Positions 4,268 through 47,613 of a stretch of 64,000 nt of DNA are shown one piece after another (positions within the stretch are counted from its first letter, which is position 1; each line of letters opens with the position of its first letter). Below the pieces are notes generated by a model that had not been told where the DNA came from, made no database searches, and saw only the letters and a list, made by a program, of their open reading frames with translations. The stretch is from assembly GCA_026066175.1 (NCBI GenBank), contig GCA_026066175.1_4721.2; one strand, given 5' to 3'. The stretch is from a phage. Made by a program: the position numbers and the translations under genes.

Positions 4268-4594
4268 TTAACTTATCGTCATGAATTCCGTAGGTGAGAA
4301 TTTCCAACCGTTTTCATTGAGAAGCGTGTTAAGTTTCGCTGCAACGATAAGCCATGCGTGCATGGCTGTCACATCGTATTGGCGATTAACACGGCGTTGG
4401 TTTTCGATATCGATTTGCTCCCGTTCGGTGATGTTTGGGTAGAGCGCGACGGCGCTGGGCTTCCCTAACGCATCACTCATTACCGCCTGACATTCACTGA
4501 TGATGTTATTGAGATGATAATTGTAAACCGTTCCACGCATAACACGATGACGGCATTCAATAATAGCGTCGTAAATAATTTCTCTTGTTGTCAT
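4268..4594 (-). CDS. hypothetical protein (108 aa)
   Basis: ORF in the minus-strand block, start 6 nt after the upstream stop. Confidence 0.55.
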   Translation of the reverse strand: MTTREIIYDAIIECRHRVMRGTVYNYHLNNIISECQAVMSDALGKPSAVALYPNITEREQIDIENQRRVNRQYDVTAMHAWLIVAAKLNTLLNENGWKFSPTEFMTIS

Positions 4595-4600
4595 GATCGA

Positions 4601-5002
4601 TTAAAACACACGTTCGTTTTTAGCACGGGCATCCATAACCAAATCGTAGATACCAGCTGTTCGTAAACATTCTTCGTAATAACGGTGCGTACCTTCCTCC
4701 GCCATCCACGATAACCCACGACTATCGGCAACAATAACCAGTTTGTTATTGTTGAATGCGCATACCACACGGTAAGTCGCATTGTTGTTTGGATCACGTG
4801 TAATCAGTTCGTAAACACCATTAACCGGTTTACTGAATTCACCGTTCAGCGGAATAAGTTCCGTTGTACCTTCAGCAAACGTTACATTGATTGATGCTGG
4901 CTCTTTAGCAATGACGGTGTATTCCACGTTGTGTTCTTTACTGGTCATGATACCGAAATAAGAACTTACTGGAGAACGTGGTACACTAAGAATATTAAAC
5001 AT
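4601..5002 (-). CDS. hypothetical protein (133 aa)
   Basis: ATG start; same operon block. Confidence 0.6.
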   Translation of the reverse strand: MFNILSVPRSPVSSYFGIMTSKEHNVEYTVIAKEPASINVTFAEGTTELIPLNGEFSKPVNGVYELITRDPNNNATYRVVCAFNNNKLVIVADSRGLSWMAEEGTHRYYEECLRTAGIYDLVMDARAKNERVF

Positions 5003-5065
5003 GAATGTTGTCCTCTTAATTGGATATAGATTGTTGGTATGTATTTGAATAAGGTTGGTTTACTT

Positions 5066-5635
5066 TTAGACGATGAGCGTCCAGGTGGTCAGTACACCGC
5101 TTGCGAATTCAAGCTTAAGACGTTTACCAATAAGCTGTTGTTGGATCATCTTTTCCGTGATCCGACGATCGTGTTGAACGGCTTTATCGAATGCCTCTTT
5201 TGCTTCGGCTTGATAAAAGTTCGTTTCTTCGTTCTCGTCGATATCTTCGAATGCATCATCGTCGATATCAGCAAGTTTTACACGGCCGTTTTCATCGGGT
5301 TGTTCGGCCGGTTCGTTGTCGTAAGGCGTGTCTTTTGTCGGTGCGACACGGTGCTGTAGTTCAACCTGGGTTAGCATCACTTCCATCTCACCGTCGATAG
5401 GGATGATGTCATCAGCACTACCGTTTTCGGTTAGCTCTCGACTTTCCAGTAACGTCGTAGTAACAGTGAACACCTCCTCGACAGGAACCTCATCATCGTC
5501 GATGGTGTTAACCGTACCGCTGGTCACTTCGGCAACAACCATCAAATCGAATGCGTGAGGGTCGCCGGGCATTTTGATCCCAGGAAGTTTGTTGAGATAC
5601 CAAGGATCAAGAATCATGATTTCGGGATTAAACAT
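5066..5635 (-). CDS. hypothetical acidic protein (189 aa)
   Basis: ATG start; D/E-rich product. Confidence 0.65.
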   Translation of the reverse strand: MFNPEIMILDPWYLNKLPGIKMPGDPHAFDLMVVAEVTSGTVNTIDDDEVPVEEVFTVTTTLLESRELTENGSADDIIPIDGEMEVMLTQVELQHRVAPTKDTPYDNEPAEQPDENGRVKLADIDDDAFEDIDENEETNFYQAEAKEAFDKAVQHDRRITEKMIQQQLIGKRLKLEFASGVLTTWTLIV

Positions 5636-5710
5636 CGTATTTACCTTTTTATGTTAGGTGGGTTGCGGATGGAAGAATCAATGCATAGTCTGATTTAAGT
5701 TTGTTAAGAC

Positions 5711-6544
5711 TTACTTAGCTTTCGGATTATACGGACTAACATGTTGTTGCATTCGTTGGATTGTTTCGTAGTACGGGTTATAATGAGTGAACATATTGTT
5801 GTATGGATGGTAGCCGTAAAGCGCATTTTGCCTTGCCGGTGAGAAACCTTTTTGAGAAGGACGATTTGAATTTACTGCGAGCACGTAGTAAACCAAATTT
5901 TGATGGTCGAATGTTCCTTCGTTTTTGAAGGTGTCAGCATAGGCGCTTACCGCAGGAGCAAGTCTATCACCATCGGTTGTAATGATCGTACCATCCGGGT
6001 AAACTTCTCGAACGATACACCATGTTCCGATGAGAACATCTTCGGGTGTCTTATTACTGTATCCGACTGTAACGGTAAGGTAAGTATCGAATCCTCCTGA
6101 GCGCTGCGGATGTCGATAAATTGGGCCAGTCGTTTCTGCTTTATCGGTTACGGTTTTTTCGTAAGGACACTTCTTGATTGCTTTGATGTAAATATCGGGA
6201 ATCTCTAATACCGCCTTATCAGGATGAATTCTAAAATGATTCTTGAGTAAGCCCAAAAGGTTGGTTGCTACCACGTCGTGAGGTAGTACCCAATAACTGG
6301 TAGGGGAGTCATCGCCGTCTCTCTTGGAGAAGATGACTGCCTTGTTATCGTCGTCTGGTAGACTGAAGAAAACGATTGACTCAATAGGCATAGCCAGCTC
6401 ACCACAACAGGGGTCAGCGGATAACACCCAATTGTATTTGTTGTCCGTTTCGTATAAATGTTCTGTTCTGTCGATACTACGATCCTTCAATTGGATGTAG
6501 CGTTCACGTTGTTTCTTGGTTAATTTACGGTAGATAGTGGTCAT
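5711..6544 (-). CDS. hypothetical protein, paralog family of 5711/6630/7431 genes (277 aa)
   Basis: N-terminus MTTIYRKL; shares VREVYPDGTIITT and PIYRHP...YLTVT segments with the 6630 gene product. Confidence 0.75.
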   Translation of the reverse strand: MTTIYRKLTKKQRERYIQLKDRSIDRTEHLYETDNKYNWVLSADPCCGELAMPIESIVFFSLPDDDNKAVIFSKRDGDDSPTSYWVLPHDVVATNLLGLLKNHFRIHPDKAVLEIPDIYIKAIKKCPYEKTVTDKAETTGPIYRHPQRSGGFDTYLTVTVGYSNKTPEDVLIGTWCIVREVYPDGTIITTDGDRLAPAVSAYADTFKNEGTFDHQNLVYYVLAVNSNRPSQKGFSPARQNALYGYHPYNNMFTHYNPYYETIQRMQQHVSPYNPKAK

Positions 6545-6588
6545 GTTAAGCTCCTTGATTACGGTAAGGATGATTTCGGTTTTGTGAT

Positions 6589-6617
6589 GATGGTAGGACC
6601 ACTTTGTTTAGGATCCT
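6589..6617 (-). terminator. imperfect hairpin GGTAGGACC...GGATCCTACC between paralog genes
   Basis: 7-9 bp stem in the intergenic gap. Confidence 0.3.
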
Positions 6618-6629
6618 ACCAGTACGGGA

Positions 6630-7403
6630 TTATTCATGATCAGTGTAGAAATGGTGAGGATAGCCGGAGTACGATCCTGCGTTACCGGCTATGGATTCTT
6701 TCTGGGAATCGACGACGAGCGCGTAGAACTGTCGGGAATTTGTTAACGTTGAGAAATAAGAGGAAAGGACTTTTTCGTTCAACGCATCGCACGGTAGACA
6801 GGTACGCCCACAGAACGTCGTAATACGGCCATCCGGATAGATCTCACGGATCATACGCCATTCACCGATATCAACCGGCGATGGCGCTGCTACACCACCT
6901 GTTATCGTTAAATAACGATCATACGTGGTATGACATTCTGGATGTACGTAAATTGGCTTATTGGCCTCAACTTCTTCAGGAGCATAGCGTCGACCGAGAA
7001 GTTCAATAACCTCCAGATAGATTGTAGGCAGATCGCAAAGAACCCCTTCCTCTTTACGTTTCTTCGTGATTCGAGGACGAACCTCATTGATAACGTAGGC
7101 GAGTTCATTCAGCGCTTCTTGCGCTGGTAGCACGAATAAACGGTCCGGTTTGTCGGACAAGTCTTCATTTACGTAAACGTAACAAACATCGTCTTTAGGC
7201 GCGTAGAAGAAGCGAGAGACCTTAAAGGTTTCCGTAGTACGATAACCGAGACGCGTTTGGTCCTGCACCAGAGAAAATATCCAGCGACGTCCTTCGTCCT
7301 GTTCAATGATATCATTGAACATCTTTGTTTGATCAGGAAGTTGATATTCTTCCTGTAATTTAGCAAGTGCTTCATTATCCAGTTTGGTGTAAACATCAGT
7401 CAT
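6630..7403 (-). CDS. hypothetical protein, paralog of 5711 gene product (257 aa)
   Basis: N-terminus MTDVYTKL; IREIYPDGRITT and PIYVHPECHTTYDRYLTITGG align to the paralog; Cys cluster CGRTCLPC. Confidence 0.75.
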   Translation of the reverse strand: MTDVYTKLDNEALAKLQEEYQLPDQTKMFNDIIEQDEGRRWIFSLVQDQTRLGYRTTETFKVSRFFYAPKDDVCYVYVNEDLSDKPDRLFVLPAQEALNELAYVINEVRPRITKKRKEEGVLCDLPTIYLEVIELLGRRYAPEEVEANKPIYVHPECHTTYDRYLTITGGVAAPSPVDIGEWRMIREIYPDGRITTFCGRTCLPCDALNEKVLSSYFSTLTNSRQFYALVVDSQKESIAGNAGSYSGYPHHFYTDHE

Positions 7404-7430
7404 GATAGTATCCTCGATTAGTAAGGTTGG

Positions 7431-7835
7431 CTAGTCTATCTTAAGCCAGATTGATGGTAAATGGAAATAGACACCGTCGTCTATTTGTTTTTGTGTTAAC
7501 GGGGTTGGAAGTTTAGTGATGATGTTGTCGATCGATTCCTCAATGTCACTTGTTAGAACGTCGATGTGGTAATAGCGAGCGATGCGTCCGTTACGTTCTA
7601 GCCAAAACAGACGAACGAAATCACTATTTTTATTAATCGCATTCATAAACACGATTTGATGAAGCAGGATCATTCTTGACGAGGGGTAATCGTCAGGACG
7701 CGGAGTCATCACCAGTTCCCAACGTTTCCGTCGCACGCCTTTTTTGAATTGACTCGTTACATTTGAACCACTTTTACCTAAGTTTATAACAAATTGCTTT
7801 AGACGATACGGTGTGTTTCTGTAAATATCGGTCAT
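7431..7835 (-). CDS. hypothetical protein, short member of the same family (134 aa)
   Basis: N-terminus MTDIYRNT; first gene after the TATATTAC repeat. Confidence 0.65.
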   Translation of the reverse strand: MTDIYRNTPYRLKQFVINLGKSGSNVTSQFKKGVRRKRWELVMTPRPDDYPSSRMILLHQIVFMNAINKNSDFVRLFWLERNGRIARYYHIDVLTSDIEESIDNIITKLPTPLTQKQIDDGVYFHLPSIWLKID

Positions 7836-7854
7836 TGATTATAGCTCCAGGTTA

Positions 7855-7886
7855 TTATCACTAAGGTAATATAGTCGTGAAATAAA
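7855..7886 (-). promoter_or_regulatory. 32-nt promoter-like repeat; minus strand reads TTTATTTCACGACTATATTACCTTAGTGATAA
   Basis: Identical 32-mer recurs at 48100-48131; contains TATATTAC; lies 20-50 nt upstream of the 7835 start. Confidence 0.45.
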
Positions 7887-7919
7887 CTGGAGTAATAGAA
7901 ATAATAAGACGGCATAAGA

Positions 7920-7950
7920 CCCTCTCCCAACCCGGAAGGGAAGGGAGAGG
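7920..7950 (-). terminator. conserved palindromic hairpin, variant CCCTCTCCC...GGGAGAGG
   Basis: Same architecture as 4219-4250 with compensatory stem changes; follows the stop of the 7956 gene. Confidence 0.55.
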
Positions 7951-7955
7951 AAGTA

Positions 7956-9323
7956 TTAAACGGTTGGACGAACGGTGTTGTCTTTTTCCGGTGCAAGCCA
8001 GAGTGTGACGGTACCGTGGCAGGTCCATTGGGGTTCACGTACAGAAGAACCCGCCATCGTAACAGCGCAATCGGTACGCATAACAACGCCGTAAGCTTCG
8101 CAAAGGTTATTGTCTTGCATCCAAACAACTTTAGCAGGCATGCCAGGATACAGTAAATCCATGTTGGCATGTTCCCATACCAACTGCATCGTTCGACCGC
8201 GTAACCCAGCAGTATTACTTAATTCCCGCCAACGGTTATCCGTTACCCGGCCCATCCCTTTTGCTACCTTCACGTTATCACTACGTTCTTCCGTCACATA
8301 CTCGCTTACGTTCACGGTACGACTGATGATCGTATCACCGCCCTTCGATAACGTCATTCCCTGGCTCATCTGACTCGCTGAAACAAAGCGTCCACCCGCA
8401 TTACCTAACAATGAAGCTGCGTTGCTGATATCGCTGACCGACGCACCTCGTGTACACGCGATCTCCACGTATTTGTCACGATTGATCCAGGTATTTTCCA
8501 TGCCGGGAAACATATCGGCCGGATAATTGTAAAAAATCGCCGTACGTCGACCGTCGGAGAAACGGGTTTCGTCATACAGAGGGTAGATATACAAATACGG
8601 TGATTGGTAATAGCAACCAACGTCCGCTGAATAAATACCGACCTGGTTCTGGATCTTATCAACAAGATCCATCGCGTTGGTACCATGAGGAAGAATCAAT
8701 AACTTGAACAAATCATTGTTATTCGGTGCGACAATATCAACACCCTGCATTTTGAAGCCGGTATCCGCTTCAACAGCAGAAAGGATTTTACTGAATTCGA
8801 GTCGCAGTACATCCAGAACTTTCGATCCAGTATAGTTCTCACCGGTTTCTGACTGCATGAAGCTTTCAAGAACAGGATCGAACAACTGGAATTGAAGATC
8901 GACCATCTGCTCGTAATCTTTCTTCGCAGAATCGGTTGCAGTACGTTCATCGGTTGCGGACATACGACTGTCTACGGTGGTTAAACAAACTGCCCGATAG
9001 ACATAAGCTTGTGCGGCATCGTCTACGGTTTGGCGTTGTCCACGCATCAGACTGTACGCCTGCACGATGACGCGCATTTTAAGTTGTTGCTGGTACGGTA
9101 AAATGTATTTTCCGTAACTGCCCGGAGGGAACTTTACAGAGATATAAAGTTCATCTCCTGCGTTACGTTCATAGTCTCGATACGTGTGGACTTGAGTCAC
9201 TAAAGGAACAGACACCGTCATTGACGGCGTGATTAATTCCGCGGTGACTTTATACGCAACAGCAACTGCTTCCTGCGCAAATGTACCGATATACCGTCCT
9301 AACGGCGTCTGTTTGTAATCCAT
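7956..9323 (-). CDS. hypothetical protein (455 aa), possibly virion-associated
   Basis: Long ORF, ATG start. Confidence 0.8.
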   Translation of the reverse strand: MDYKQTPLGRYIGTFAQEAVAVAYKVTAELITPSMTVSVPLVTQVHTYRDYERNAGDELYISVKFPPGSYGKYILPYQQQLKMRVIVQAYSLMRGQRQTVDDAAQAYVYRAVCLTTVDSRMSATDERTATDSAKKDYEQMVDLQFQLFDPVLESFMQSETGENYTGSKVLDVLRLEFSKILSAVEADTGFKMQGVDIVAPNNNDLFKLLILPHGTNAMDLVDKIQNQVGIYSADVGCYYQSPYLYIYPLYDETRFSDGRRTAIFYNYPADMFPGMENTWINRDKYVEIACTRGASVSDISNAASLLGNAGGRFVSASQMSQGMTLSKGGDTIISRTVNVSEYVTEERSDNVKVAKGMGRVTDNRWRELSNTAGLRGRTMQLVWEHANMDLLYPGMPAKVVWMQDNNLCEAYGVVMRTDCAVTMAGSSVREPQWTCHGTVTLWLAPEKDNTVRPTV

Positions 9324-16659: not shown

Positions 16660-17763
16660 TTAAAAGTAATATTTCAGCGCCTCGCGAGAGACGTCAAGCA
16701 TAGCCGCCGTTGAGTTCGTGAAGAACTCGGCATAGCCCACAAGCGGCACCTTGATCCACGCGGTATACGCTGTAAGGTATCGAGAAAGGGCTACCATAGC
16801 ATCATCAGAAGCTGTAATGGATAACTGACCTTGTTGACGATACACATCGTTCAGTTTTGCTTGCAGGTTCCCTGCGATCTCAAGTAATTCGTTGGCGTAC
16901 TTTTTACGATGGTACGTAATAAGCAGATCAACACCGGTATTTACCGATTCGAGTAAAACGCCAATCTGCTCCAACGACGGCATGGTTACAACCATATCAC
17001 GCTCAACAGACACGACGTCCTGAACTTCAAATCGTGCTGATTGAATCGCGAGAGATTGTTGGATTGCTCCAGAACCCGTTGCGGTAACCTGATCAAGTCG
17101 TAGCATCCGGTTACCTAACAACGTCGTGTTAACCAGCCGCGATTCATTCAACGCACTGTACACCTTGTTCAACAGCGTGTGTGCATCACGATTAATCACA
17201 TCGATTAATGCGGTATCCGTCTGTTTTAAGATGATGTCAAGCGCTCTGTCTAACGTGTTTGCGAACTGTTTGAAGTCATCACGGAACGACGTTGACAACA
17301 GGTATTCTGCGATCTTCAGGTTTTGTTTGTATAACGTGTTTCCGGTGGTGAAGTCGAACCCGAAACTGTTTCCATAACGCAAATGTGGTGCGAGCGTGGG
17401 TGAGGCTTCAAAACTTTGCGCGATGGGTTTATGTCCAACCGCTTTCGTGTATTGACGACGGATATTACTCAGCTCGATTTGCAACGCACGACTGCGGTCG
17501 ATATACCGTGCGATGAAAGCAGTGATATTCCGCAACGTTGTCCAAATCGCATCGATGATCGCTTTGATGATTTTCATCGCAAGCTGGTTGTATGATTCCA
17601 GGGTAAGGAGATCAGCGCTTTCTGTAGCATAACCGGTTGCCAGAGCGCCGCCCGCTTGCTGATAAATAAGCTGATGGATTTGTCGTTGTGTTGCCGTCTC
17701 AGGTAGAGGTAAGGTTTTTAACAAGCTTAAGGCTTGGATTTGTCCATCATTGGTCTGCAGCAT
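16660..17763 (-). CDS. hypothetical protein, member of 5-gene paralog family (about 368 aa)
   Basis: Listed start 17826 is GTG; ATG at 17763 has a GAGGAA SD. Family-like helical segment with conserved Trp (AIIDAIWTTLRNI). Confidence 0.7.
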   Translation of the reverse strand: MLQTNDGQIQALSLLKTLPLPETATQRQIHQLIYQQAGGALATGYATESADLLTLESYNQLAMKIIKAIIDAIWTTLRNITAFIARYIDRSRALQIELSNIRRQYTKAVGHKPIAQSFEASPTLAPHLRYGNSFGFDFTTGNTLYKQNLKIAEYLLSTSFRDDFKQFANTLDRALDIILKQTDTALIDVINRDAHTLLNKVYSALNESRLVNTTLLGNRMLRLDQVTATGSGAIQQSLAIQSARFEVQDVVSVERDMVVTMPSLEQIGVLLESVNTGVDLLITYHRKKYANELLEIAGNLQAKLNDVYRQQGQLSITASDDAMVALSRYLTAYTAWIKVPLVGYAEFFTNSTAAMLDVSREALKYYF

Positions 17764-19048
17764 TGCGGGTTTCCTCAAGTTCGAGATGTGCATCAAGGTA
17801 ATCGTTAAGACCATCGATGACGTCACAGACCGTTAACAGGAATCGAGCAAAAGCAACGGCCTGGAAGCCAACGACATTACGAGCAATGCTAACACGTTGC
17901 ACAATGGCGGTTGAAGCCGCTTGGTCATCGTAGATCTGATGCAACAAACGTTCGTAGGGCTGAATCCATTCATCTTGATCAGCGAGGCTTGCCTCAAGAC
18001 AACGTTTAAATTCCAATTGACGTAGCGTTGACCATAAGGTGCTTAATGCGCCGATGATGGCGTTGGTTCCATCAAGAACATCGTTCAAGGGCAGGAAACG
18101 GAATCCGTCCTTCGCTGACTGGAAAGGAATGGCTTCCCATACAACGCTAAACTGTGCGCCAGTATAATCATCGACGTTCAGTACTTTTAACTGCGAAGCG
18201 CCAACCGGTGCGTTTATGATGACGTCATTGGTTTCAGTGTTCTCCAACGGCTTTTCACACAACGCGTCGTTGATCGCCTTAAGGATGTTTTCCCAACATG
18301 CCTCATTTTCAGCCGCGATGTTATCTTTGTTCTCCAACACCGGTGCTTTTAATAACCGCATCAGTAACGGATCAAGCTGACGATGCCATGCCGCCAGTAT
18401 CCCGGTATTTGTCATGATGTTTTCTGCGGTCTGTTGTAAATCCGCAACGCTGCTTACCGCACCGCCTCTTGGATGGAGATATCGCCAGTTATACGGGAAG
18501 TTCTCCCAGAAGGCATTATCTTCGTTAACCGTATATGCAGGAAGATTTTTCAGTTTTACGGCTTTCTTCAGCAACGGTTTTACTTGACGCACAAAACGAC
18601 GATAACTGCGGTTGCAAATATCAATGGCGTAGCGATACAACTCGTTCATGTAAAGCCATAACGCTCGGGTTGCCTCTTTCGCGGTTTTGTCAAAACTTTC
18701 CATGTTAAGACTCATCCCACCTGAGGTTTCCTCTTCCATCCCATCGATGATCTGATTGGGATCCATTCCCATCCCAGCCGCTGCGGTTGAAGCGATATGT
18801 TTGATGGTATTAATATCACGTTCTTCAACTTCGGTCATGTTAGGGACAATATCTAACCGGAGTTTGTTTAATGTTTGAAGGTGTTGTTCACCTTCCTTCA
18901 TGACGGTGTTCGTTTCATCGAGTGAGCGAAGCTGATTTTCGATATTACCGACATCGAGGATGTTGCCAGCGACACCGAATGATTCTACAGGTTCATCATC
19001 TATCCCTTGAAACAACGCGGTCATGGGTTGTTGCAACACGTTTTCCAT
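17747..19048 (-). CDS. hypothetical protein, paralog family (433 aa)
   Basis: IKHIASTAAAGMGMDPNQ and ATRALWLYM segments align with the 19202 and 20504 gene products. Confidence 0.8.
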   Translation of the reverse strand: MENVLQQPMTALFQGIDDEPVESFGVAGNILDVGNIENQLRSLDETNTVMKEGEQHLQTLNKLRLDIVPNMTEVEERDINTIKHIASTAAAGMGMDPNQIIDGMEEETSGGMSLNMESFDKTAKEATRALWLYMNELYRYAIDICNRSYRRFVRQVKPLLKKAVKLKNLPAYTVNEDNAFWENFPYNWRYLHPRGGAVSSVADLQQTAENIMTNTGILAAWHRQLDPLLMRLLKAPVLENKDNIAAENEACWENILKAINDALCEKPLENTETNDVIINAPVGASQLKVLNVDDYTGAQFSVVWEAIPFQSAKDGFRFLPLNDVLDGTNAIIGALSTLWSTLRQLEFKRCLEASLADQDEWIQPYERLLHQIYDDQAASTAIVQRVSIARNVVGFQAVAFARFLLTVCDVIDGLNDYLDAHLELEETRNAADQ

Positions 19049-19105
19049 TTAGGACTCCTACGTAGGAAAGATCATGGTGGGTGATCATGTCCACCATTGT
19101 GCGCG

Positions 19106-19128
19106 GTATGGAGCGTGGCTCCATACCC
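19106..19128 (-). promoter_or_regulatory. perfect 10-bp hairpin GGTATGGAGC-GTG-GCTCCATACC in the 5-prime leader of the 17747-19048 gene
   Basis: Lies between the conserved palindromic hairpin and the start codon. Confidence 0.35.
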
Positions 19129-19162
19129 AAGTCAAAAGATAACCGGATATTAACGGCATATA

Positions 19163-19194
19163 CCCTCCTCCTTCCCTTCCGGGTTGGAGGAGGG
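19163..19194 (-). terminator. conserved palindromic hairpin (inverted orientation)
   Basis: CCCTCCTCCTTCCCTTCCGGGTTGGAGGAGGG, between the 19202 stop and the 19048 start. Confidence 0.55.
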
Positions 19195-19201
19195 ATTTAG
19201 C

Positions 19202-20494
19202 TTATTTTGCTTTCTCGGTTACCGCGTTGAAGTATTTCGCTGCAGCAAATACCGCCTCCGCATACTGACGGACAGAGGCACGGAGGATCTTGGTTCCTAA
19301 TACCGAGCTTAAACGAGCCATTTCTGTTACAGCCGCGATATAAGGACGTACGGTTTCACGATCGGCCTCAGGTAACTTGTCGAGCATTTCGCCCCACTTC
19401 GTTTTGATTTTCATTCCGTTGAGTTTAGCATCTCGTCCTACAGTGCTTGCCAAACTTTCAACTTTATGCAAATATGTCGGCTCCACCCTATGGAATGCCT
19501 TCAGATATGCCGTCAATGCGCTTTTCAGCTCATTCCCATCGTGGAAAATATTCACATTTTCGATATTATCTGTTACGGTGTCAACAACTTCGATATGAAC
19601 ATCCTTCACCAAAGCACATGCTTTAATGACATCTTTCTCTTTTTCTAACGCATCCAGCCCTTTAACGACATATTGTTTTCCGCCGCTTTCTGGAAGTCTG
19701 AACGCTCTCAGCGCAGCTTTAGTGGTCTGAAGATACTTATCTAGAACACTATCGAGCGTTGTTAAATCAGTTAGGACATTGATGTCGTAGTTGATGTCAC
19801 CGATCATAGTAAATAGGAAATCTGACGTCGCCGCACTTGCAGCTAATTGTTCGATATGTTTGCTAACGGATGTTGCATTAACCGATTTTGCGTTCGGGAA
19901 CATATTAACCATATTCCCGGTAGGCTTCTCTAGCTGCTTGATCTGACGTTCCCCTTTATTGACTTCGGATGCGATTTTGGTGATCTCAGCATAAGCCAGA
20001 ACGAGATTCTTGAAAAGCGTCTGGAGCAACTTAAACAATTGTTCAGCAATATTCGCGATGGTGACCCAGACCGCATACAGTGCTTGCGCTGCACGTTCCT
20101 TGAAGCCTTCCAGCACGATAGCTTGGCCTTCGACTAACTTATCATTAGCCTGGAACATGTCTTCATCAGACATACCCAGGTTAGCTGCCGATGTTGATGC
20201 GATTTGGCGGATAAGCGCAACGTCGCTGGCGCGGGCTTCTGTGATCGTTGATGCGATTACGTAGGCGGTATCTTCCAACGTTGCTGATGTCCGTACAGCG
20301 ATTTCAGCCAGTTCGCTGTTCTCGTCGATGCTGTCGTCGGTATGTCGAATCACCAACTCAACTTCATCTTCCTCAATTTCTGCGTTGGGGTCTTGTTGCT
20401 CGGGTGAAATCGATGCAAGAACATCTTCAGCGCTGAGTAGTGCGAGTTCAAAAGCGTTTTTATTGATGTTATCAAAAAGAGAAATACGGGCCAT
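19202..20494 (-). CDS. hypothetical protein, paralog family (430 aa)
   Basis: SDVALIRQIASTSAANLGM and VEGQAIVLEGFKERAAQALYAVW align with the 20504 gene product. Confidence 0.8.
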   Translation of the reverse strand: MARISLFDNINKNAFELALLSAEDVLASISPEQQDPNAEIEEDEVELVIRHTDDSIDENSELAEIAVRTSATLEDTAYVIASTITEARASDVALIRQIASTSAANLGMSDEDMFQANDKLVEGQAIVLEGFKERAAQALYAVWVTIANIAEQLFKLLQTLFKNLVLAYAEITKIASEVNKGERQIKQLEKPTGNMVNMFPNAKSVNATSVSKHIEQLAASAATSDFLFTMIGDINYDINVLTDLTTLDSVLDKYLQTTKAALRAFRLPESGGKQYVVKGLDALEKEKDVIKACALVKDVHIEVVDTVTDNIENVNIFHDGNELKSALTAYLKAFHRVEPTYLHKVESLASTVGRDAKLNGMKIKTKWGEMLDKLPEADRETVRPYIAAVTEMARLSSVLGTKILRASVRQYAEAVFAAAKYFNAVTEKAK

Positions 20495-20503
20495 GTGGGT
20501 TCC

Positions 20504-21823
20504 TTAACCTTTAGTATAGGCTTTAACGAGGGTGTTAATAAAAGAAGTTAATGCACGAAGGTACTGATAAGCGAATTGGTTTTCAATACGTTGCTCTTTA
20601 CTGCAGAGCATGATCGCCCGTTTCACCAGTTTGGGATATATTTCAACGTACGGTTTATAACTGTCGTCGTATTGCTGCGTATCGAATTTTTTCATGGCTT
20701 CATACTGCAGCTTTTCCATCTGACGAACACGAGCACGATCGAAGATCTTGGAGAACGCACGTCCGCGTTGGGTGATCGCAATCAGATCTTTCGCTAACGA
20801 AAGCGGTTTAACGCTACGGAAATCATCCGGTGTGGGTAGCGTGTAGTTTTCTGGATCGCTATCCCATTCGGTCGCTGCGTCTTCAACCACGACATCCAAT
20901 TTCAGATAATTTTCAATCGCGGCAAGAACGTTGTCTTTTGCCGCATTGAATTCTTTTAAGAACACAGCAGCATTAACATAACGAATACGTTTACCAGAAA
21001 CCGCCGGTGTAACCACATCACTCCCGTCAACGGAACCTCTGTTCTCCAATGCGGTTTTCAGTGTATCCAGAAACGACATGTAGTCCACAGGAAGTTGGTC
21101 AACACGATCTAAACGAAAATCGAATGTCTTCACACCAAGACCGGTGGTAAGGTCGTAACGTGCACCGCCTGCCATGATTCGGTTATAGTTCTCAAGGTTC
21201 TTCTTGATTTCGTCAACACCACCGACATGATTGCGATTGGAAAAGAGGATACGCCAACCGGCTTTGAACGGCACGGTAACCGTTTCTTCTTTACCTTTCG
21301 GAAGTTTTTCTAACGCTTTGATCGCATTCTGGAAATTGCGGGTTTCATCATAGATGATCCGCGTTAATCCTTCCAGGACAGCAGCCAGTTGCAGAACAAT
21401 ATCAACAATGATATCCCAGATCTTTTTCAACGCTCGAACGACGGTGTCTTTGAACCCTTCAACAACCAACGCTTCACCCACGGTGATGTTGTCAGTAGGA
21501 CGAAGCATTGCATCGGAAGGCAGACCTAAAGCGATTGAGGCGGATTCTTGAACGTTACGTACCAATGCAACGTCGCTGTAGTTAGCCGTCTCAATCGTTG
21601 GTGCAACATCAAAACTGATTTCTCGTAATGCTTCAACAGCAGGGAAAGCACGATCGAGCGCCTCTTCATGTTCATCGATGTTCGCTAAACGGAGTTCAAC
21701 CCCATCAGCGTCAATGACTTCGGTGGTAGGCTCTGCTGCAAGCGCCTCGGCAACGATGGGATCCTTCTCAAAAGCTTCAAGGCTAATATCGCCTTGTGTA
21801 GCAAATAGTGGTATACGTACCAT
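20504..21823 (-). CDS. hypothetical protein, paralog family (about 439 aa)
   Basis: Listed start 21847 is TTG; ATG at 21823 has a GGAGAC SD. Motifs SDVALVRNVQESASIALGL, VGEALVVEGFKDTVVRALKKIW. Confidence 0.8.
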   Translation of the reverse strand: MVRIPLFATQGDISLEAFEKDPIVAEALAAEPTTEVIDADGVELRLANIDEHEEALDRAFPAVEALREISFDVAPTIETANYSDVALVRNVQESASIALGLPSDAMLRPTDNITVGEALVVEGFKDTVVRALKKIWDIIVDIVLQLAAVLEGLTRIIYDETRNFQNAIKALEKLPKGKEETVTVPFKAGWRILFSNRNHVGGVDEIKKNLENYNRIMAGGARYDLTTGLGVKTFDFRLDRVDQLPVDYMSFLDTLKTALENRGSVDGSDVVTPAVSGKRIRYVNAAVFLKEFNAAKDNVLAAIENYLKLDVVVEDAATEWDSDPENYTLPTPDDFRSVKPLSLAKDLIAITQRGRAFSKIFDRARVRQMEKLQYEAMKKFDTQQYDDSYKPYVEIYPKLVKRAIMLCSKEQRIENQFAYQYLRALTSFINTLVKAYTKG

Positions 21824-21871
21824 GTGATGTCTCCAGTAATAATTCAAAAGATAAATCAGCGCAGCATAAGA

Positions 21872-21903
21872 CCCTCTCCCAACCCGGAAGGGAAGGGAGA
21901 GGG
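21872..21903 (-). terminator. conserved palindromic hairpin, variant CCCTCTCCC...GGGAGAGGG
   Basis: Between the 21926 stop and the 21823 start; preceded by GCATAAG as at 7913. Confidence 0.55.
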
Positions 21904-21925
21904 AATATGTCAGTTTACTAACTGA

Positions 21926-23257
21926 TTATTTCTGTGCTGCGTCAGCCGGTTTTTCAGCCGCCTGGCCGCTGTACTCTTTCAGCATTTTAGCAACGCCGTC
22001 CAGTACTGCGTTACCCGCCTGAACACCGTACTTCATCAGGCTAACCTGCGGGTTGATGTAGCAAGAACGTGCGTCTTTCAGTGCAGACAGCACAGTTTTA
22101 ACACGCTGTTTCTCTTGAGCAGAAACTTCGCCTTTCTTAGCCAGTTCAGCTTCCATATCGTCGCCGAATTTAACAGCGTCTTTGAAGCCCTGGGATTTCT
22201 TACCGATGTTACCTTTCGCAGCCAGCAGTTTATCGGCCAGCGCTTCAACGCTGTTGATCACCGCAGCCATCTGGTTCGGGGACAGTACATCGGCTTCCTG
22301 TTCCATCACGGTGATTGCGTTATTGCCGCGTTCCCAGGTCACTTTACCGTCGGTGGTTTTGAATCCCCAACCGTTCGGACCTTTCACATCAGCGATCGCA
22401 GGCGCGTTCAGTTTGTCGGTGTACTCAGTATGTGATTTAGACTTAACGAGTTCAACGAATTTATCCGCACGATCGTCAGCCGCCTTCATTGCTTTCTCGA
22501 AGGTATCTGCGATTTTGCTTGATGCACCAGCGATATCGATATCGCCAATATAACCGGTAACAGTGGTGCCCAGTTTAACTTTCGCGTTCTTCGGAGAGCC
22601 TTTACGTTTGGCGATCATTTCTTTCAGTTTAGCCGCACGTGCTTTCAGTTTGGTTGCACCGTCGAAGATACGATCGATGAACTTCACGAAGTTGTCCCAG
22701 GTGGATTTCAGGAAGTTCTTAATTGCAGTCCACAGTTTCTGCCACCATTTCTGTTCTTCCAGGAAGATCATGTTGGTTGCATCATAACGGGAAGCGGAAC
22801 CGCCGAAGCTTTCGAAGGAAGGCATGGTTTCCGGCAGTTTGAAGCCGATAGTACCACACAGACGTTTCAGATTACGCATGTGTTCTTGCGCGGTCTGTGC
22901 AGACATACCACCGTCTTTCAGATAGCTTTCGGTCGCAACAACGGTTTCCGTCATTTCGTCCATGGCTTCGTCCATGGCTTCAGCGGTTTCGTCGTCTTTT
23001 GCGATTTCGATAACAACAGCATCAACCTGCTCGATGTCACCACGGACTTCGATAGCCAGTTCGGTTTCAGCAGCGGTGTCTTCAGCGATTTCAGCACGTT
23101 CGGTCAGTTCAGCCACAACGGTTTCATCGCCTGCAGCAGCATCGGCTGCCGGTTCTGCTTCAACGGTTGCCGCAGCTTCCGGATCGATCTCAGCAGCCAG
23201 TTGAACCAGCTGTGCGTTAGATGGATTTGCGACAAGACGATCAAAAATAGAAGGCAT
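21926..23257 (-). CDS. hypothetical protein, distant member of the same paralog family (443 aa); probably abundant
   Basis: Strong optimal-codon bias; acidic N-terminal region; WQKLWTAIKNFL helix comparable to family members. Confidence 0.85.
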   Translation of the reverse strand: MPSIFDRLVANPSNAQLVQLAAEIDPEAAATVEAEPAADAAAGDETVVAELTERAEIAEDTAAETELAIEVRGDIEQVDAVVIEIAKDDETAEAMDEAMDEMTETVVATESYLKDGGMSAQTAQEHMRNLKRLCGTIGFKLPETMPSFESFGGSASRYDATNMIFLEEQKWWQKLWTAIKNFLKSTWDNFVKFIDRIFDGATKLKARAAKLKEMIAKRKGSPKNAKVKLGTTVTGYIGDIDIAGASSKIADTFEKAMKAADDRADKFVELVKSKSHTEYTDKLNAPAIADVKGPNGWGFKTTDGKVTWERGNNAITVMEQEADVLSPNQMAAVINSVEALADKLLAAKGNIGKKSQGFKDAVKFGDDMEAELAKKGEVSAQEKQRVKTVLSALKDARSCYINPQVSLMKYGVQAGNAVLDGVAKMLKEYSGQAAEKPADAAQK

Positions 23258-41347: not shown

Positions 41348-41349
41348 CG

Positions 41350-41830
41350 ATAACAGGTCCCCCTACTTGTAATGAGTGGGTGAACTCTCTTTAATTGCTG
41401 GAAACCTTTAATGCCCCTCCACACCACAACGCAATCCGAAAGGGTAAACGTGACGGTTGTCGAAAGACAGAAAGAAGTTGGAGGGGATCACCTAAGCTGA
41501 AATAAAAGCCGTTACTTTCTGGATATGGGAAGAGTCTAACGGTGCTAAGGGTTCTGCTAGAAATAAGGTAACCGTAGCAGCGAAGACCCTACGGACTGTC
41601 GTGACCAACTCACTGAGTTGGCGTGGTGAAACACGGACAGACTACGGGTAACGTTCAACGACCATCCGGTTGCGCGGAGTAGGAGAAATAGGATGTTCTC
41701 TGAAAAGGGAGAAGTCGGTCGAGGTGTTGTAGAAACACCGTTGCTTTGCTTCGCAAACATAAGACAGGCTAAGATATGGTCTATATTAAATGTAATACTA
41801 TGATGTATAGAATTTAATGGCTCGATATTA
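41350..41830 (+). ncRNA. candidate group I intron catalytic core (or degenerate remnant)
   Basis: About 500 nt without ORF; R-like GTTCAACGACCATCC (41653-41667) and S-like AAGATATGGTCTA (41771-41783) can form P7 (GACCA/TGGTC) with a compensatory change relative to the canonical GACTA/TAGTC; Q/P-like GCAATCCGAAAGGG at 41431-41444; several local hairpins. Confidence 0.4.
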
Positions 41831-41859
41831 GCAGTTCATATCCAAATGGGCAGATCCTT

Positions 41860-42075
41860 TTGAATCTATCCAGAGCGTGCGTATTTCGTGAGCTTTCACG
41901 GATTGAGGGCGTCTCTGATTATCAATTCAGGAAGCTGGGTATTAACTTCATCACGGGCGGTAAAACGAATGCGGTTGACTTCTGCCGAATCGTTCATAAA
42001 GCCCCGTCGATGTTCGAACTGTTAGCGCATTTTGACGCGACACGTCCGAAGGAAGCGCCAAAGACCCTTGATTGA
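41860..42075 (+). CDS. small ORF (71 aa, TTG start); possibly the 3-prime exon of the upstream gene rather than an independent gene
   Basis: Open frame begins at 41818 right after the intron-like core; followed by an A11 run and a bidirectional terminator. Confidence 0.25.
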   Translation: MNLSRACVFRELSRIEGVSDYQFRKLGINFITGGKTNAVDFCRIVHKAPSMFELLAHFDATRPKEAPKTLD

Positions 42076-42100
42076 AAAAAAAAAAGAAACGCATGCGAAG

Positions 42101-42131
42101 CCCCTCCCCTGGCGGAAGCCGGAGGGAGGGG
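42101..42131. terminator. hairpin CCCCTCCCCTGGC-GGAA-GCCGGAGGGAGGGG with flanking A11/T-rich tracts
   Basis: Variant of the conserved hairpin; A-run 42076-42086 gives a U-tract for the minus-strand cluster, TTTTATGCG on the plus side. Confidence 0.6.
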
Positions 42132-42148
42132 TGGAGGTTTTATGCGTT

Positions 42149-42634
42149 TTATGCGCGTTCGCTGCTAACCATGACTTTATAATCAGCGTCGGTTAAGAAG
42201 ATAGACAGGAAGCCATGTTCTTTGCAAAGCTCACTAAGGACCTCGGTAATGATTTCATTGATCAATGGTTTATTTGCGAGAGCGTAGATATACCCATCAG
42301 TAAAAGAAAGGGCATGTTTAATCATCGGCTCATGAGACGCCAGGACAAGGATCACATGGTGTTGACCATCATCGGTAACGACCGCTTGCGTCGACACAAA
42401 GAAACCAGTGAAGCCGCATTGGTAACTGGCTTTAGGGATATATAAATCACCTAAAGCTTCGTCACGCGCTTTCATGTGGGTTTCAGGCGTGATGCTACTA
42501 AGCTGATCTTCGGCGATATCCAGAGTCTCTTCAACGGTTTTCAGAATGGCTTCTTTGAAATCCTTGCGGTAGACCTGGATAATTTCACGGTCGTTGATGT
42601 AATCGCCGGATTCGATGGTAAAGTTCAAGTTCAT
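42149..42634 (-). CDS. small hypothetical protein, tandem array member (161 aa)
   Basis: GGAG SD followed by an A-run before ATG; C-terminal EHGFLSIFLTDADYKV strand similar to the family motif. Confidence 0.7.
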   Translation of the reverse strand: MNLNFTIESGDYINDREIIQVYRKDFKEAILKTVEETLDIAEDQLSSITPETHMKARDEALGDLYIPKASYQCGFTGFFVSTQAVVTDDGQHHVILVLASHEPMIKHALSFTDGYIYALANKPLINEIITEVLSELCKEHGFLSIFLTDADYKVMVSSERA

Positions 42635-42687
42635 TTTTTTTTACTCCTGATTTATGTGTCGATTGATTGACGTATTAATTTATGTTT

Positions 42688-42706
42688 GAAGGTGCTGTTC
42701 ACCTTC
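42688..42706 (-). terminator. hairpin GAAGGTG-CTGTT-CACCTTC
   Basis: Directly after the stop of the 42708 gene; near-identical 24-mer also at 18872-18895. Confidence 0.4.
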
Positions 42707-42707
42707 G

Positions 42708-43139
42708 TTAGATATCATCCGGTGTATATTCGATGTTGTAAACGACGTAACGGTCTGACGCATGAACGACGAGCTCGACGGGGAAATCATAATGCTTGGT
42801 TTTGTCTCGAACATGCTGGGTAAAGAGATCCGTATAACGGATTAAGTCTTCCACGGTATACTCAGAAGGGAAGAAGACATCGATGGTTATTGACTTTTCA
42901 TAGAGGCGTATGACCAGCTTATCCAGAAGGTTGGCATATCGGTTACACGGGGCGACGTCCAGAAGACAGAAATCACCGTCTTCTGCGTCTCGTGGTATCC
43001 ACATCGTGGTATCTTGTAACGACGTTTCAAGGATCTCGAAAATGCAGTCTGCTGTAAGTCTTAGTTTATCTGTTATTTCACGGTTAGGTGAATAATGGTC
43101 ACGAATGCTTTTCACTGCTTCTTTGATGGAGAAAGTCAT
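42708..43139 (-). CDS. small hypothetical protein, tandem array member (143 aa)
   Basis: MTFSIK N-terminus, ILETSLQDTTMW, KSITIDVFFP, HYDFPVELVVH. Confidence 0.75.
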   Translation of the reverse strand: MTFSIKEAVKSIRDHYSPNREITDKLRLTADCIFEILETSLQDTTMWIPRDAEDGDFCLLDVAPCNRYANLLDKLVIRLYEKSITIDVFFPSEYTVEDLIRYTDLFTQHVRDKTKHYDFPVELVVHASDRYVVYNIEYTPDDI

Positions 43140-43153
43140 CGTTGATGCTCCTT

Positions 43154-43663
43154 TTAAAAGATATCAAGCCATGAGGATGGGGAAACCAGTTCGCTTGTGA
43201 AACATTGCGTACCGTCGGTATTTACCGCATGGGTAAGTTTATAAGCCTTAACGGCCGGTTTACTGCCGATGGTGAGGACGGTTGTCATGTCGAGCCATTC
43301 GGCACGATGGAGAAATGCCATATCAGCCACCTTCTGTAGACCATTTGCTTCAAAATCGATACGGTCGTTAAGCGGCATCAATCGGATTTCAATACGTTCT
43401 TTGAAGAGTTGAAACGTTACTGAAAACTCATGCGGTTTGGCATTAAGACATAAAGGCCCTCGATGGAAGTGTTGGTATGCTTCATTCTTGTTATGCTCGA
43501 AAACCCAGCAGTTGTGGACAAGAGAAGCGTCTTGTAACGAGGATTCCAGGTAGTCAAATACCTTGTTTATTGTTTGCTCGAGCAGAGACGCTAATGAATC
43601 TGGATATCCAGCAAATGCTGCTTCGGCGATCGATTTTACTGAAATGGTATTGTTCTGGTTCAT
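43154..43663 (-). CDS. small hypothetical protein, tandem array member (about 169 aa)
   Basis: Listed start 43690 is TTG; ATG at 43663 has an AAGGAA SD; YLESSLQDASLVHNCW matches the family. Confidence 0.7.
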   Translation of the reverse strand: MNQNNTISVKSIAEAAFAGYPDSLASLLEQTINKVFDYLESSLQDASLVHNCWVFEHNKNEAYQHFHRGPLCLNAKPHEFSVTFQLFKERIEIRLMPLNDRIDFEANGLQKVADMAFLHRAEWLDMTTVLTIGSKPAVKAYKLTHAVNTDGTQCFTSELVSPSSWLDIF

Positions 43664-43667
43664 CTCT

Positions 43668-44120
43668 TTATTCCTTGTCGGATTCGTCAATGTATTTGGT
43701 GTCGTAAGACATATGCTGGATTAATTTTCTAGGCTCGATGAAAATACGACACGAGATAAATACATCGGGATCATACTGCTCTACACAACGCCCGAAAACC
43801 AGCTTTGCAGTCTGGCGCATCAAGGCTATTTCCCGATCATTCATCTCATTATCGAATTCGATGTTTATCGTGATTTTATCAGGAAATAAATAGATAGAGT
43901 AATTGCCACTAATACCACCATCATCAAAACGATAATCGTTGTGGTAATGGTGAAGCTTACCGTCGTGTGTCGTCTGGTACCATCCGATGATACTATCAAG
44001 TCCCACACCCAAGCGGCGTTCGAATGCCCAATTAATAACATCCTCGACAACGGATGCGGGCGTGGGACCATTGAATAATCTATCCAGACGCTTTTTCATC
44101 GATTTGGTTTTCACGTTCAT
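43668..44120 (-). CDS. small hypothetical protein, tandem array member (150 aa)
   Basis: ATG start; C-terminal QYDPDVFISCRIF. Confidence 0.7.
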   Translation of the reverse strand: MNVKTKSMKKRLDRLFNGPTPASVVEDVINWAFERRLGVGLDSIIGWYQTTHDGKLHHYHNDYRFDDGGISGNYSIYLFPDKITINIEFDNEMNDREIALMRQTAKLVFGRCVEQYDPDVFISCRIFIEPRKLIQHMSYDTKYIDESDKE

Positions 44121-44150
44121 TGTTTCTTTTCCTGTTATAGTCGGTATACA

Positions 44151-44184
44151 GCCCTTCCCCGGCCTTGATGGCTAGGGAAGGGGC
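44151..44184 (-). terminator. imperfect GC hairpin GCCCTTCCCCGGCC-TTGAT-GGCTAGGGAAGGGGC
   Basis: Intergenic within the array. Confidence 0.4.
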
Positions 44185-44196
44185 TATGTTACGTTG

Positions 44197-44598
44197 TTAC
44201 GCTTCGCAATCAGCTGAAGATGTTGCACGCTTCTTGCCATCAAAATGCCAAAGTAGACACGCTGGGAAGAGGCAAACATCTAGAGTGCAAGGGATGTCGT
44301 ATTTTTCTTCCAGTTCGTAAAGACAATCCGCGAGCTGCTTTCGTGCATTCTCATCGTGTCGTAATGCGATATGACCTAATCGTTGTTGGTCGTTCTTTAC
44401 ATATACCTCGAAAAGTATGTGTTGTTGAAAAGCATTGATTCGTACCCCTTCAAGTATATCGGTGTCGAGCATGCGAGTAAAACTCATTGCTGTCGACGAT
44501 GTCGAGGTTTCTTGTTTAACCAGATCGATCATGGTGGGAATATACGAATGGTCGATGTTATCGACGACCGCTTTAGCGACGGAATCTGCAATGTTCAT
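44197..44598 (-). CDS. small hypothetical protein, tandem array member (133 aa)
   Basis: C-terminal KYDIPCTLDVCLF. Confidence 0.7.
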   Translation of the reverse strand: MNIADSVAKAVVDNIDHSYIPTMIDLVKQETSTSSTAMSFTRMLDTDILEGVRINAFQQHILFEVYVKNDQQRLGHIALRHDENARKQLADCLYELEEKYDIPCTLDVCLFPACLLWHFDGKKRATSSADCEA

Positions 44599-44628
44599 CT
44601 TTAATCCTTAATGTTATCGTTACCGTAT

Positions 44629-45048
44629 TTAGGTGGTTTTCGGGTTATGTTCGTATTTGACGATCGTTACTGGAATATTGCAACGGTCGAAACAGTTGAA
44701 TGAAATTGTTGTTGGGATATCGAACGCCACGACTCTGGCTTTAATATACCCGATTAAGTCGTCTTCGATAAATAAAACCTCAGGCTTATCGTTAGCATCG
44801 ACCCAAACACCAACACAGAGCTTGTCGTTATTGGTCAGTACGTTGATAGTGTATGTACTGTCGTCCATGTGAATATGCGATCTTCTACAAGAATTGAGTA
44901 GAGCAGTCGGACTATTCGCAGTCGCCCGCAACTGGTTGCTGGTCTGGATCGTGTTCAGGACATCACGTATGATGTTATCTACCAACGTAAATAGTTTCTC
45001 AGTAACGTTCTCTTTTAGAAGCTGCATCAAAGAAACAGTTGTGGTCAT
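44629..45048 (-). CDS. small hypothetical protein, tandem array member (139 aa)
   Basis: C-terminal AFDIPTTISF. Confidence 0.7.
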   Translation of the reverse strand: MTTTVSLMQLLKENVTEKLFTLVDNIIRDVLNTIQTSNQLRATANSPTALLNSCRRSHIHMDDSTYTINVLTNNDKLCVGVWVDANDKPEVLFIEDDLIGYIKARVVAFDIPTTISFNCFDRCNIPVTIVKYEHNPKTT

Positions 45049-45809: not shown

Positions 45810-45811
45810 GA

Positions 45812-46264: not shown

Positions 46265-46308
46265 TGCCGTGATCCTACCTTTTCTTTATCTGTGATAAAA
46301 TTGTTTAT

Positions 46309-46330
46309 GTGTTCCCTCTTACGGGAACAC
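46309..46330 (-). terminator. hairpin GTGTTCCC-TCTTAC-GGGAACAC
   Basis: Perfect 8-bp stem after the stop of the 46338 gene. Confidence 0.4.
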
Positions 46331-46337
46331 GTCATTT

Positions 46338-46847: not shown

Positions 46848-46912
46848 AATCACCTCTTTTTAATCTAAATGTTCGTTGGGATTGTTTACCATTTGGCGTC
46901 AGCTTAAAACGA

Positions 46913-47518: not shown

Positions 47519-47572
47519 CTCGAATTCCTTAAATTTCTTAGATTCAATTAATGATGGAAAGCAGAAAAAAAT

Positions 47573-47590
47573 GGTGGGGCGAACCCCACC
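47573..47590 (-). terminator. intrinsic terminator GGTGGGG-CGAA-CCCCACC followed by a U7 tract on the minus strand
   Basis: 7-bp GC stem, GNRA-type loop, A-run 47565-47571 on the plus strand. Confidence 0.65.
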
Positions 47591-47613
47591 AAAACGTCAG
47601 ACACACGCAAAAA

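Follow-up and report, generated by a model that had tools for sequence, protein, structure and literature searches.

The 64,000-nucleotide stretch of phage DNA analyzed here (GenBank assembly GCA_026066175.1, contig GCA_026066175.1_4721.2; hereafter, the window) carries three adjacent genes between positions 5,711 and 7,835 that, judged by profile comparison, are real and homologous, and that define a new, well-delimited family of anonymous function without detectable fold relatives. On the evidence of the contigs to which its members could be traced, the family is confined to Goslar-like phages (genus Goslarvirus), in which it fills a single slot with a variable number of copies and combinations of domains. 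We read the encoded proteins as nonessential early accessory proteins acting on the host or on competing phages, an assignment whose chances of being right or wrong we consider about equal. The three open reading frames (ORFs) are the following:

5711..6544, minus strand: A277, 277 residues, A-type, two-domain, with a longer Tyr/Asn/Pro-rich tail and without the Cys cluster
6630..7403, minus strand: B257, 257 residues, B-type, two-domain
7431..7835, minus strand: C134, 134 residues, the N-terminal domain alone

An earlier note on this DNA had proposed a family of three paralogs with similar N-termini (MTTIYRKL in A277, MTDVYTKL in B257, and MTDIYRNT in C134). The ORFs and their N-termini are as it described them, and the family is borne out by profile methods, the test that it had named. 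BLASTP aligns A277 with B257 end to end from residue 1 (E = 3e-21, 30% identity over 254 columns), and the shared blocks to which the note had pointed are present in both proteins (VREVYPDGTIITT / IREIYPDGRITT and PIYRHP...YLTVT / PIYVHP...YLTIT). Pairwise, C134 matches the two long proteins weakly (E = 9e-4 and 0.014), and the E-values that profile searches return for the 134-residue proteins are circular, since C134 was part of the query profile; we therefore turned to an independent hhalign comparison, in which a profile of C134 orthologs, built without A- or B-type sequences, matched the profile of the long members over residues 1–132 (probability 96.4%, E = 1.2e-9, 126 columns). Because this independent profile matches, C134 is a true member of the family that comprises the N-terminal domain only. 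It stops at ...LPSIWLKID, the motif at which the domain border lies in the long members, and 134-residue orthologs are conserved at 75–99% identity on many contigs of ~240 kb. No repeat was found at the DNA level among the three genes; hence, the paralogy is old, and a recent tandem duplication, which we considered as their origin, is rejected.

The full-length members share a layout in which a rapidly diverging alpha/beta N-terminal domain of ~135 residues, opening with MT-x-IY, is followed by a variable linker, a conserved beta-rich C-terminal domain of ~85 residues with invariant Y-x-HP, D-x-YL, G-x-W, RE, and DG positions, and a disordered, aromatic and Pro-rich tail. In B257, the N-terminal domain spans residues ~1–135 and, beyond the linker, the C-terminal domain spans residues ~150–235, with a disordered tail rich in Tyr, Pro, and His. 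An AlphaFold2 model of B257, computed from a 35-sequence alignment, has a mean predicted local distance difference test (pLDDT) score of 71, with values of 80–94 in the N-terminal domain (residues 1–135) and a low-confidence linker; the model of A277 (pLDDT 60) shows the secondary-structure elements in the same order. The N-terminal domain is homologous across the members, from the initial MT-x-IY to a terminus near LP(T/S)I(Y/W)L. Among the four full-length subfamilies, M1 and T2 are invariant within it, Y5 is nearly so, and scarcely anything else is. The C-terminal domain, by comparison of the A, B, 286-residue, and 291-residue types, retains 16 invariant columns, including H154, D162, R186, E187, and D191, and its motifs PIYxHP, DxYLT, GxW, RE..(Y/L/R)(P/S)DG, and T..G..L.P are found in both A277 and B257. 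This domain is wholly absent from C134, which is thus a partial member. The proteins are hydrophilic, and the number of hydrophobic segments of membrane-spanning length is zero.

The family had also been credited with Cys-rich segments as a common trait, and here the earlier description holds only for part of B257. The predicted string HPEC...CGRTCLPC is indeed present in that protein, as C157, C198, C202, and C205, but A277 and C134 lack the four-Cys constellation (the three proteins contain 6 cysteines in B257, 4 in A277, and none in C134). The four residues are kept in 12 of the 12 aligned clusters of B-type orthologs and are missing from the A, 286-residue, and 291-residue types, except that the first position is often a Cys there too; in A277, D, L, and A occupy the positions aligned to the three C-terminal-domain cysteines, and even the first-position Cys that most A-type proteins keep is missing (HPQR versus HPQC or HPCC). 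By these alignments, the constellation is a feature of the B-type subfamily and not of the family. Consequently, we consider it unlikely that the proteins are metal-binding regulators or enzymes in which an HPEC...CX3CX2C cluster would bind Zn or an Fe-S center and be central to function. Known zinc- and cluster-binding sites have spacings with which CX3CX2C agrees, and this agreement, the conservation of the four cysteines in all 12 B-type clusters, and the invariance of H154, D162, R186, E187, and D191 in all long subfamilies, consistent with a conserved ligand or active site, speak for such a mechanism. However, the absence of the C-terminal-domain cysteines from the other long types means that a metal site is not the common mechanism of the family; Pfam, NCBIfam, and the PDB returned no metalloprotein or radical S-adenosylmethionine (SAM) match, and a domain of ~85 residues is far below the size of a radical-SAM barrel. 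A family-wide metal site is therefore rejected, the cysteines not being conserved beyond the B-type. Metal binding is possible for the B-type only, in which four candidate Cys ligands of a structural Cys4 zinc site are conserved in all aligned sequences. Radical SAM was considered for the same proteins and set aside: the CGRTCLPC spacing fits, but the motif is restricted to the B-type, has no Pfam or NCBIfam match, and lies in a beta-rich domain of ~85 residues, short of the ~200 residues or more of a radical-SAM domain (a partial TIM barrel).

Similarity searches delimit the family sharply. Word-indexed searches of 5.8 billion proteins returned 19 clusters of the B-type, 5 of the A-type, and a few of the C-type, each of them either unnamed or annotated as hypothetical, and those matches that could be traced lie on ~240 kb contigs in Escherichia coli, Shigella, and Salmonella assemblies or in metagenomes. 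A HMMER profile search, exhaustive over 1.84 billion representative proteins, yielded five clusters only, corresponding to the B, A, 286-residue, 291-residue, and 134-residue types, and every subfamily that was traced to a contig led to a Goslar-like one. Searching 50,697 GenBank phages by tblastn with A277 and B257 revealed no relative; there was no match in Pfam, PHROGs, NCBIfam, or PADLOC, against which each member was run as a single sequence, nor in BFVD, and a sequence-profile search of the PDB gave nothing significant (best E = 0.83). One candidate relationship, to NHL-repeat beta-propellers (E = 4e-4), arose from a weak match of profile positions 185–201 to an IRRITPDGxVxT hairpin that is repeated in a 701-residue NHL-like protein. 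It is spurious, as the family contains a single copy of the motif and has no Pfam NHL match.

The window itself is, by nucleotide identity and gene order, a Goslarvirus genome, that is, a nucleus-forming jumbo phage of the Chimalliviridae. Its positions 5,000–9,000 are ~87% identical to Escherichia phage vB_EcoM_Goslar over 46% of the region length, and the gene order around the three-gene locus is collinear with Goslar gp042–gp053. Sequences identical to A277, B257, and C134 are present at NCBI as consecutive hypothetical proteins (EKC0519021–23) of an E. coli O157 assembly, in agreement with a recent report that enterobacterial assemblies often contain genomes of Goslar-like phages (237 genomes, 38 species; PMC12768965). 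The slot is delimited by genes with Goslar counterparts:

4268..5635, minus strand: homologs of Goslar gp46, gp45, and gp44 (189, 133, and 108 residues), assigned by gene order
7956-9323: spike-cap gene (homolog of Goslar gp48), the last gene of the upstream tail/baseplate block

In the window and in the eight related loci that we compared (L002, L003, L005, L009, L011, L012, L013, and L014), the family lies at the same place, between the spike-cap gene and the gp46 homolog. The slot holds from zero to three intact copies, in addition to truncated members, and no copy was found outside it in the rest of the window or elsewhere in Goslar. Its contents are as follows:

Goslar: deletion relic only
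L009: deletion relic and a 210-residue gene
L002 and L012: B and A
L005: 210-residue gene, B, and A
Window: C, B, and A
L014: 210-residue-type gene, C, B, and A
L003: B, 286, and 291
L013: B, 286, and a 148-residue remnant of the 291 type comprising the C-terminal domain only
L011: 210-residue gene, B, 286, and the 148-residue remnant

In Goslar, the family is reduced to a relic of 25 codons, MTLLIRDPSEYENTRYNHNQFGNNF, in which the ~12 first and ~10 last codons of a 291-type gene are fused, and comparison at the DNA level indicates that it arose by a clean internal deletion of ~0.8 kb. Given that Goslar, a laboratory phage, is viable with the relic only, we infer that lytic growth does not require the family. 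The sole feature annotated at the equivalent position in Goslar, Goslar_00047 (QBO63840.1), has the same terminator and promoter-like element upstream, and it ends in 25 codons, MTLLIRDPSEYENTRYNHNQFGNNF, that represent the fused N- and C-termini of a 291-residue-type member, making it a relic and not a functional member. This 62-residue coding sequence (MK327938 49584-49772; L001 6698-6886) overlaps the promoter-like element and is probably miscalled rather than a real gene, the sole meaningful frame at the locus being the 25-codon relic. The 210-residue gene is unrelated to the family and directly follows the spike-cap gene in four loci (L005 5226-5858, L009 8286-9017, L011 8286-9017, and L014 3738-4448); it is found neither in the window nor in Goslar. 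Its relatives, at 24–30% identity, are in jumbo phages of Erwinia, Shewanella, Serratia, and Klebsiella, and its LYRG, SFTDT, and QRE strings recall by eye the R-S-E ADP-ribosyltransferases, a resemblance without Pfam or PDB support. The gp46 homolog that borders the slot (window 5066-5635; acidic, isoelectric point 4.1) exists, depending on the genome, in a 189-residue or a 168-residue form, as seen in comparison with L004, L005, L006, and L012–L014.

The alleles in the slot are mosaic. Compared with P0004, B257 is 98% identical in the N-terminal domain, 81% in the C-terminal domain, and 36% in the tail, and compared with P0010, the corresponding values are 31%, 98%, and 95%. Synonymous divergence (dS) follows the same pattern: for the window and L002, the C-terminal-domain value is 0.16 and that of the N-terminal domain is saturated, and for the window and L011, the N-terminal-domain value is 0.07 and that of the C-terminal domain 0.83. 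Since the identities and the synonymous divergence of the two domains are incongruent, recombination between alleles at the linker offers the simplest explanation. At least three N-terminal-domain classes and at least four C-terminal-domain classes occur, in nearly every combination. Ratios of nonsynonymous to synonymous substitution (dN/dS) range from 0.04 to 0.30 in the C-terminal domain and from 0.12 to 0.74 in the N-terminal domain (0.04–0.25 and 0.12–0.44, respectively, for B257; 0.16–0.74 for A277). Judged by these ratios, both domains are under purifying selection, with the N-terminal domain being looser or partly diversifying.

As dN/dS is below 1 in both domains, pseudogenes are excluded, and we find it barely credible that the ORFs are functionless and decaying passengers of a recombination hot spot. 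Such decay would be in keeping with the frequent deletions and truncations, namely the Goslar relic, the 148-residue gene reduced to the C-terminal domain, and the 134-residue gene reduced to the N-terminal domain. Nevertheless, dN/dS lies well under 1 in both domains for many pairs, which in our judgment refutes decay; dozens of independent contigs carry intact reading frames, motifs remain invariant between subfamilies that are merely 20–35% identical, and the 134-residue form is itself conserved at 75–99% identity.

The expression of the slot can be approached through the noncoding elements that surround it:

6591..6621, minus strand: hairpin between B257 and A277 (RNA fold −16.6 kcal/mol, z = −4.4), without a U-tract
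7855..7886, minus strand: promoter-like element TTTATTTCACGACTATATTACCTTAGTGATAA, with an exact 17-mer repeat, aligning with the Goslar slot and with a second copy in the window
7920..7951, minus strand: GC-rich terminator-like hairpin (RNA fold −23.5 kcal/mol, z = −4.3) that closes the tail/baseplate block

The earlier note had placed the family directly downstream of a TATATTAC repeat, and both the repeat and the position withstand scrutiny, so that of its interpretation the paralog family and the location were upheld and the Cys-rich character was not. The string TATATTAC (7866-7873) lies inside an exact 17-mer that occurs on the minus strand at 7861-7877 and 48106-48122, where 0.09 matches are expected by chance and none of 100 shuffles gave two. 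The element can be written TTTCACGACTATATTACCT, and its core 19-mer (7864-7882) is located 29–47 nucleotides upstream of the C134 start codon. The hairpin at 7920-7951 is conserved in Goslar and next to the second copy of the element, which is likewise preceded by a hairpin and followed by a small-gene array. That array (42149-48039, minus strand) consists of 11 small genes of 133–254 residues, with six at the equivalent place in Goslar (gp070–gp075); its copy number varies too, and it is presumably what the note had listed as a first paralog family.

In the complete Goslar genome (MK327938), the 19-mer TTTCACGACTAYATTACCT occurs 11 times at no more than 3 mismatches, in every case on the minus strand, in a noncoding gap, and co-oriented with the downstream gene:

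2576, minus strand: before gp004
15076, minus strand: before gp021
43275, minus strand: before gp040
49741, minus strand: before the gp047 slot
86714, minus strand: before gp075
113806, minus strand: before gp105
142809, minus strand: before gp159
160800, minus strand: before gp175
166078, minus strand: before gp182
172987, minus strand: before gp189 (chmA)
226704, minus strand: before gp236

The consensus, TTTCACG(A/G)CTA(T/C)ATTAC(C/T)T...TGA, is probably the Goslarvirus early promoter, recognized by the virion RNA polymerase: with 2 copies in the window and 11 in Goslar, it is repeated, intergenic, and co-oriented, as expected of such a motif. The phiKZ early consensus also contains TATATTAC. 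A scan for sigma-70 promoter and terminator consensus sequences was uninformative. In Goslar, the element lies 71–89 nucleotides upstream of the chmA ATG. In jumbo phages with a virion RNA polymerase, early operons are preceded by a conserved AT-rich motif of ~10 nucleotides (PMC7598289), and transcription of chmA in Goslar is under way by 5 min after infection, with a transcription start site sequence block 91 nucleotides upstream of the ATG that overlaps the motif region (10.1101/2023.09.20.558163). Because the element that precedes the slot also precedes chmA, matches the kind of AT-rich motif found before early operons, and goes with a gene that is on by 5 min, we infer an early operon in which the slot would come first after the promoter and which would run through C134, B257, and A277 into the gp46, gp45, and gp44 homologs. 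The latter are predicted to share its transcription unit, no additional copy of the promoter-like motif being present from 7864 to 4268, and the predicted unit would end where it converges with a gene for a divergent-DnaB-like helicase (Pfam PF20307, divDNAB). The hairpin at 6591-6621 could be a partial terminator or an element of RNA stability or processing. Beyond what the earlier note had described, the comparisons show that the 134-residue gene is single-domain, that the block is a copy-variable array of recombining cassettes, and that the TATATTAC element is genome-wide and also stands before chmA.

This arrangement bears on whether the proteins could be accessory proteins of the virion or of its assembly, such as a chaperone or a host-range adaptor, tied to the neighboring baseplate/tail module, which we regard as very unlikely. 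The slot does lie immediately downstream of the spike-cap gene (gp48) and of Goslar gp50 and gp51, the neck and terminator genes (10.64898/2026.04.21.720040). However, it is set apart from the tail/baseplate block by a strong hairpin and by a chmA-type promoter-like element of its own, Goslar makes complete infectious virions without any copy, and PHROGs, the PDB, and BFVD show no similarity to structural proteins. A structural role in the virion is rejected on the grounds of the separate promoter-like element and terminator and of Goslar lacking the genes.

Promoter-proximal, strain-variable, and dispensable early genes of lytic phages are typically host-takeover or counterdefense factors. 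The combination of real homologous genes, restriction to one genus, recombining modules, apparent dispensability, variable copy number, and a chmA-type element fits the familiar class of early accessory genes that vary between strains of large lytic phages. In the mechanism that we favor, the operon would start at this element straight after the tail/baseplate terminator, with the slot as its promoter-proximal, hypervariable part, and the proteins would be produced in the host cytoplasm at an early stage of infection. The conserved C-terminal domain would provide a constant activity, binding or catalytic, or a docking surface, and the exchangeable N-terminal domain would select a variable partner, be it a component of the host or its defenses or a component of a rival phage. 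Recombination and deletion would then reshuffle copy number and domain combinations. Our confidence in any single target is far below that in the general role. A more specific version, which we put forward as a rather doubtful one, is that the proteins are structurally new, genus-specific modular early effectors, in which a small beta-barrel C-terminal domain would perform one fixed action and the N-terminal domains would retarget it to host defenses or to rival nucleus-forming phages. If so, the slot would act as a "specificity cassette" locus, and host range or compatibility during co-infection within Goslarvirus would be shaped by it.

Several observations weigh against the accessory role as we have framed it. 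dN/dS is below 1 in the N-terminal domain as well, which gives no sign of positive selection, and the C-terminal domain (residues ~160–232 in the AlphaFold2 model of B257) is beta-rich at moderate confidence (pLDDT ~70). The early timing is drawn from a motif shared with chmA, and with Goslar lacking intact copies, published Goslar RNA sequencing and virion cryo-electron microscopy are silent on the family. Finally, the same N-terminal-domain allele is present in phage contigs of E. coli O157 and of Salmonella serovars, and, with an allele common to both host genera, no simple host-genus specificity is visible.

The last observation fits a phage target better than a host target and leads to an alternative, in which the proteins would serve competition between phages, mediating self/non-self discrimination among co-infecting Goslar-like phages (for example, by superinfection exclusion or incompatibility), with the N-terminal domain recognizing a polymorphic phage component and not a host protein. 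The restriction of the family to a single genus in which many species co-circulate (237 genomes, 38 species; PMC12768965), the recombination of several allele classes in nearly all combinations, and the differences in presence and absence between close relatives are all in line with it. Yet no linked polymorphic partner gene was identified, and Goslar has no known handicap without the copies; on balance, we think this alternative improbable and retain the broader reading of early accessory proteins with targets in either the host or competing phages.

Elsewhere in the window, four tandem ORFs of 430–443 residues (17747-23257, minus strand), possibly paralogs, are collinear with Goslar gp055–gp058. 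Green fluorescent protein-tagged gp58 has reportedly been used as a marker in work on EPI vesicles, forming foci with phage DNA. Positions 41348-42148 form an 800-nucleotide stretch without an ORF of at least 80 residues, between the small-gene array and a 401-residue plus-strand gene that is collinear with the Goslar NUMOD1/HNH gene; a similar gap exists in Goslar, and the stretch has no Rfam or tRNA match, as Rfam and tRNA scans of the window gave nothing significant. A scan of genome contigs with the spike-cap protein returned no confirmed locus.

A functionally anonymous accessory gene family is a common and ordinary find in jumbo and other large phages, and the interest of this one lies mainly in its loss from Goslar and in its modular recombination. 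Goslar is a main model for nucleus-forming jumbo phages, and, because the laboratory strain has deleted the locus, no published transcriptomic, proteomic, or structural study has captured the family. The slot is among the clearest polymorphic sites in the 237 Goslar-like genomes from clinical E. coli, Salmonella, and Shigella assemblies, and if the proteins modulate host range, defense evasion, or phage–phage compatibility, they would be relevant when jumbo phages are selected or engineered for therapy. The promoter-like consensus, in turn, provides a testable map of putative early transcription units throughout the genus.

Three known kinds of system invite comparison. Like polymorphic toxin/immunity systems and phage receptor-binding proteins, the family joins a conserved to a hypervariable module, with the break point in a linker and with single-domain derivatives; it differs in that no toxin, immunity, fiber, or receptor-binding domain and no secretion signal are detectable, and in that the variable module is N-terminal. 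The early-operon arrays of small lineage-specific genes that the virion RNA polymerase transcribes in phiKZ-like phages (Chimalliviridae) differ from the present case in that the identity of the motif as the Goslarvirus early consensus is putative, but they share with it an AT-rich motif with a TATATTAC core, repeated before co-oriented blocks of uncharacterized genes, and soluble products without homologs beyond the lineage. The slot also resembles the hyperplastic or plasticity regions of T4-like and other large lytic phages, in which accessory host-takeover or counterdefense genes lie between conserved modules, in its fixed position, in insertion and deletion among close relatives, and in being dispensable in at least one laboratory phage. 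Unlike those regions, it is filled almost wholly by paralogs of one two-domain family, joined in some genomes by the unrelated 210-residue gene.

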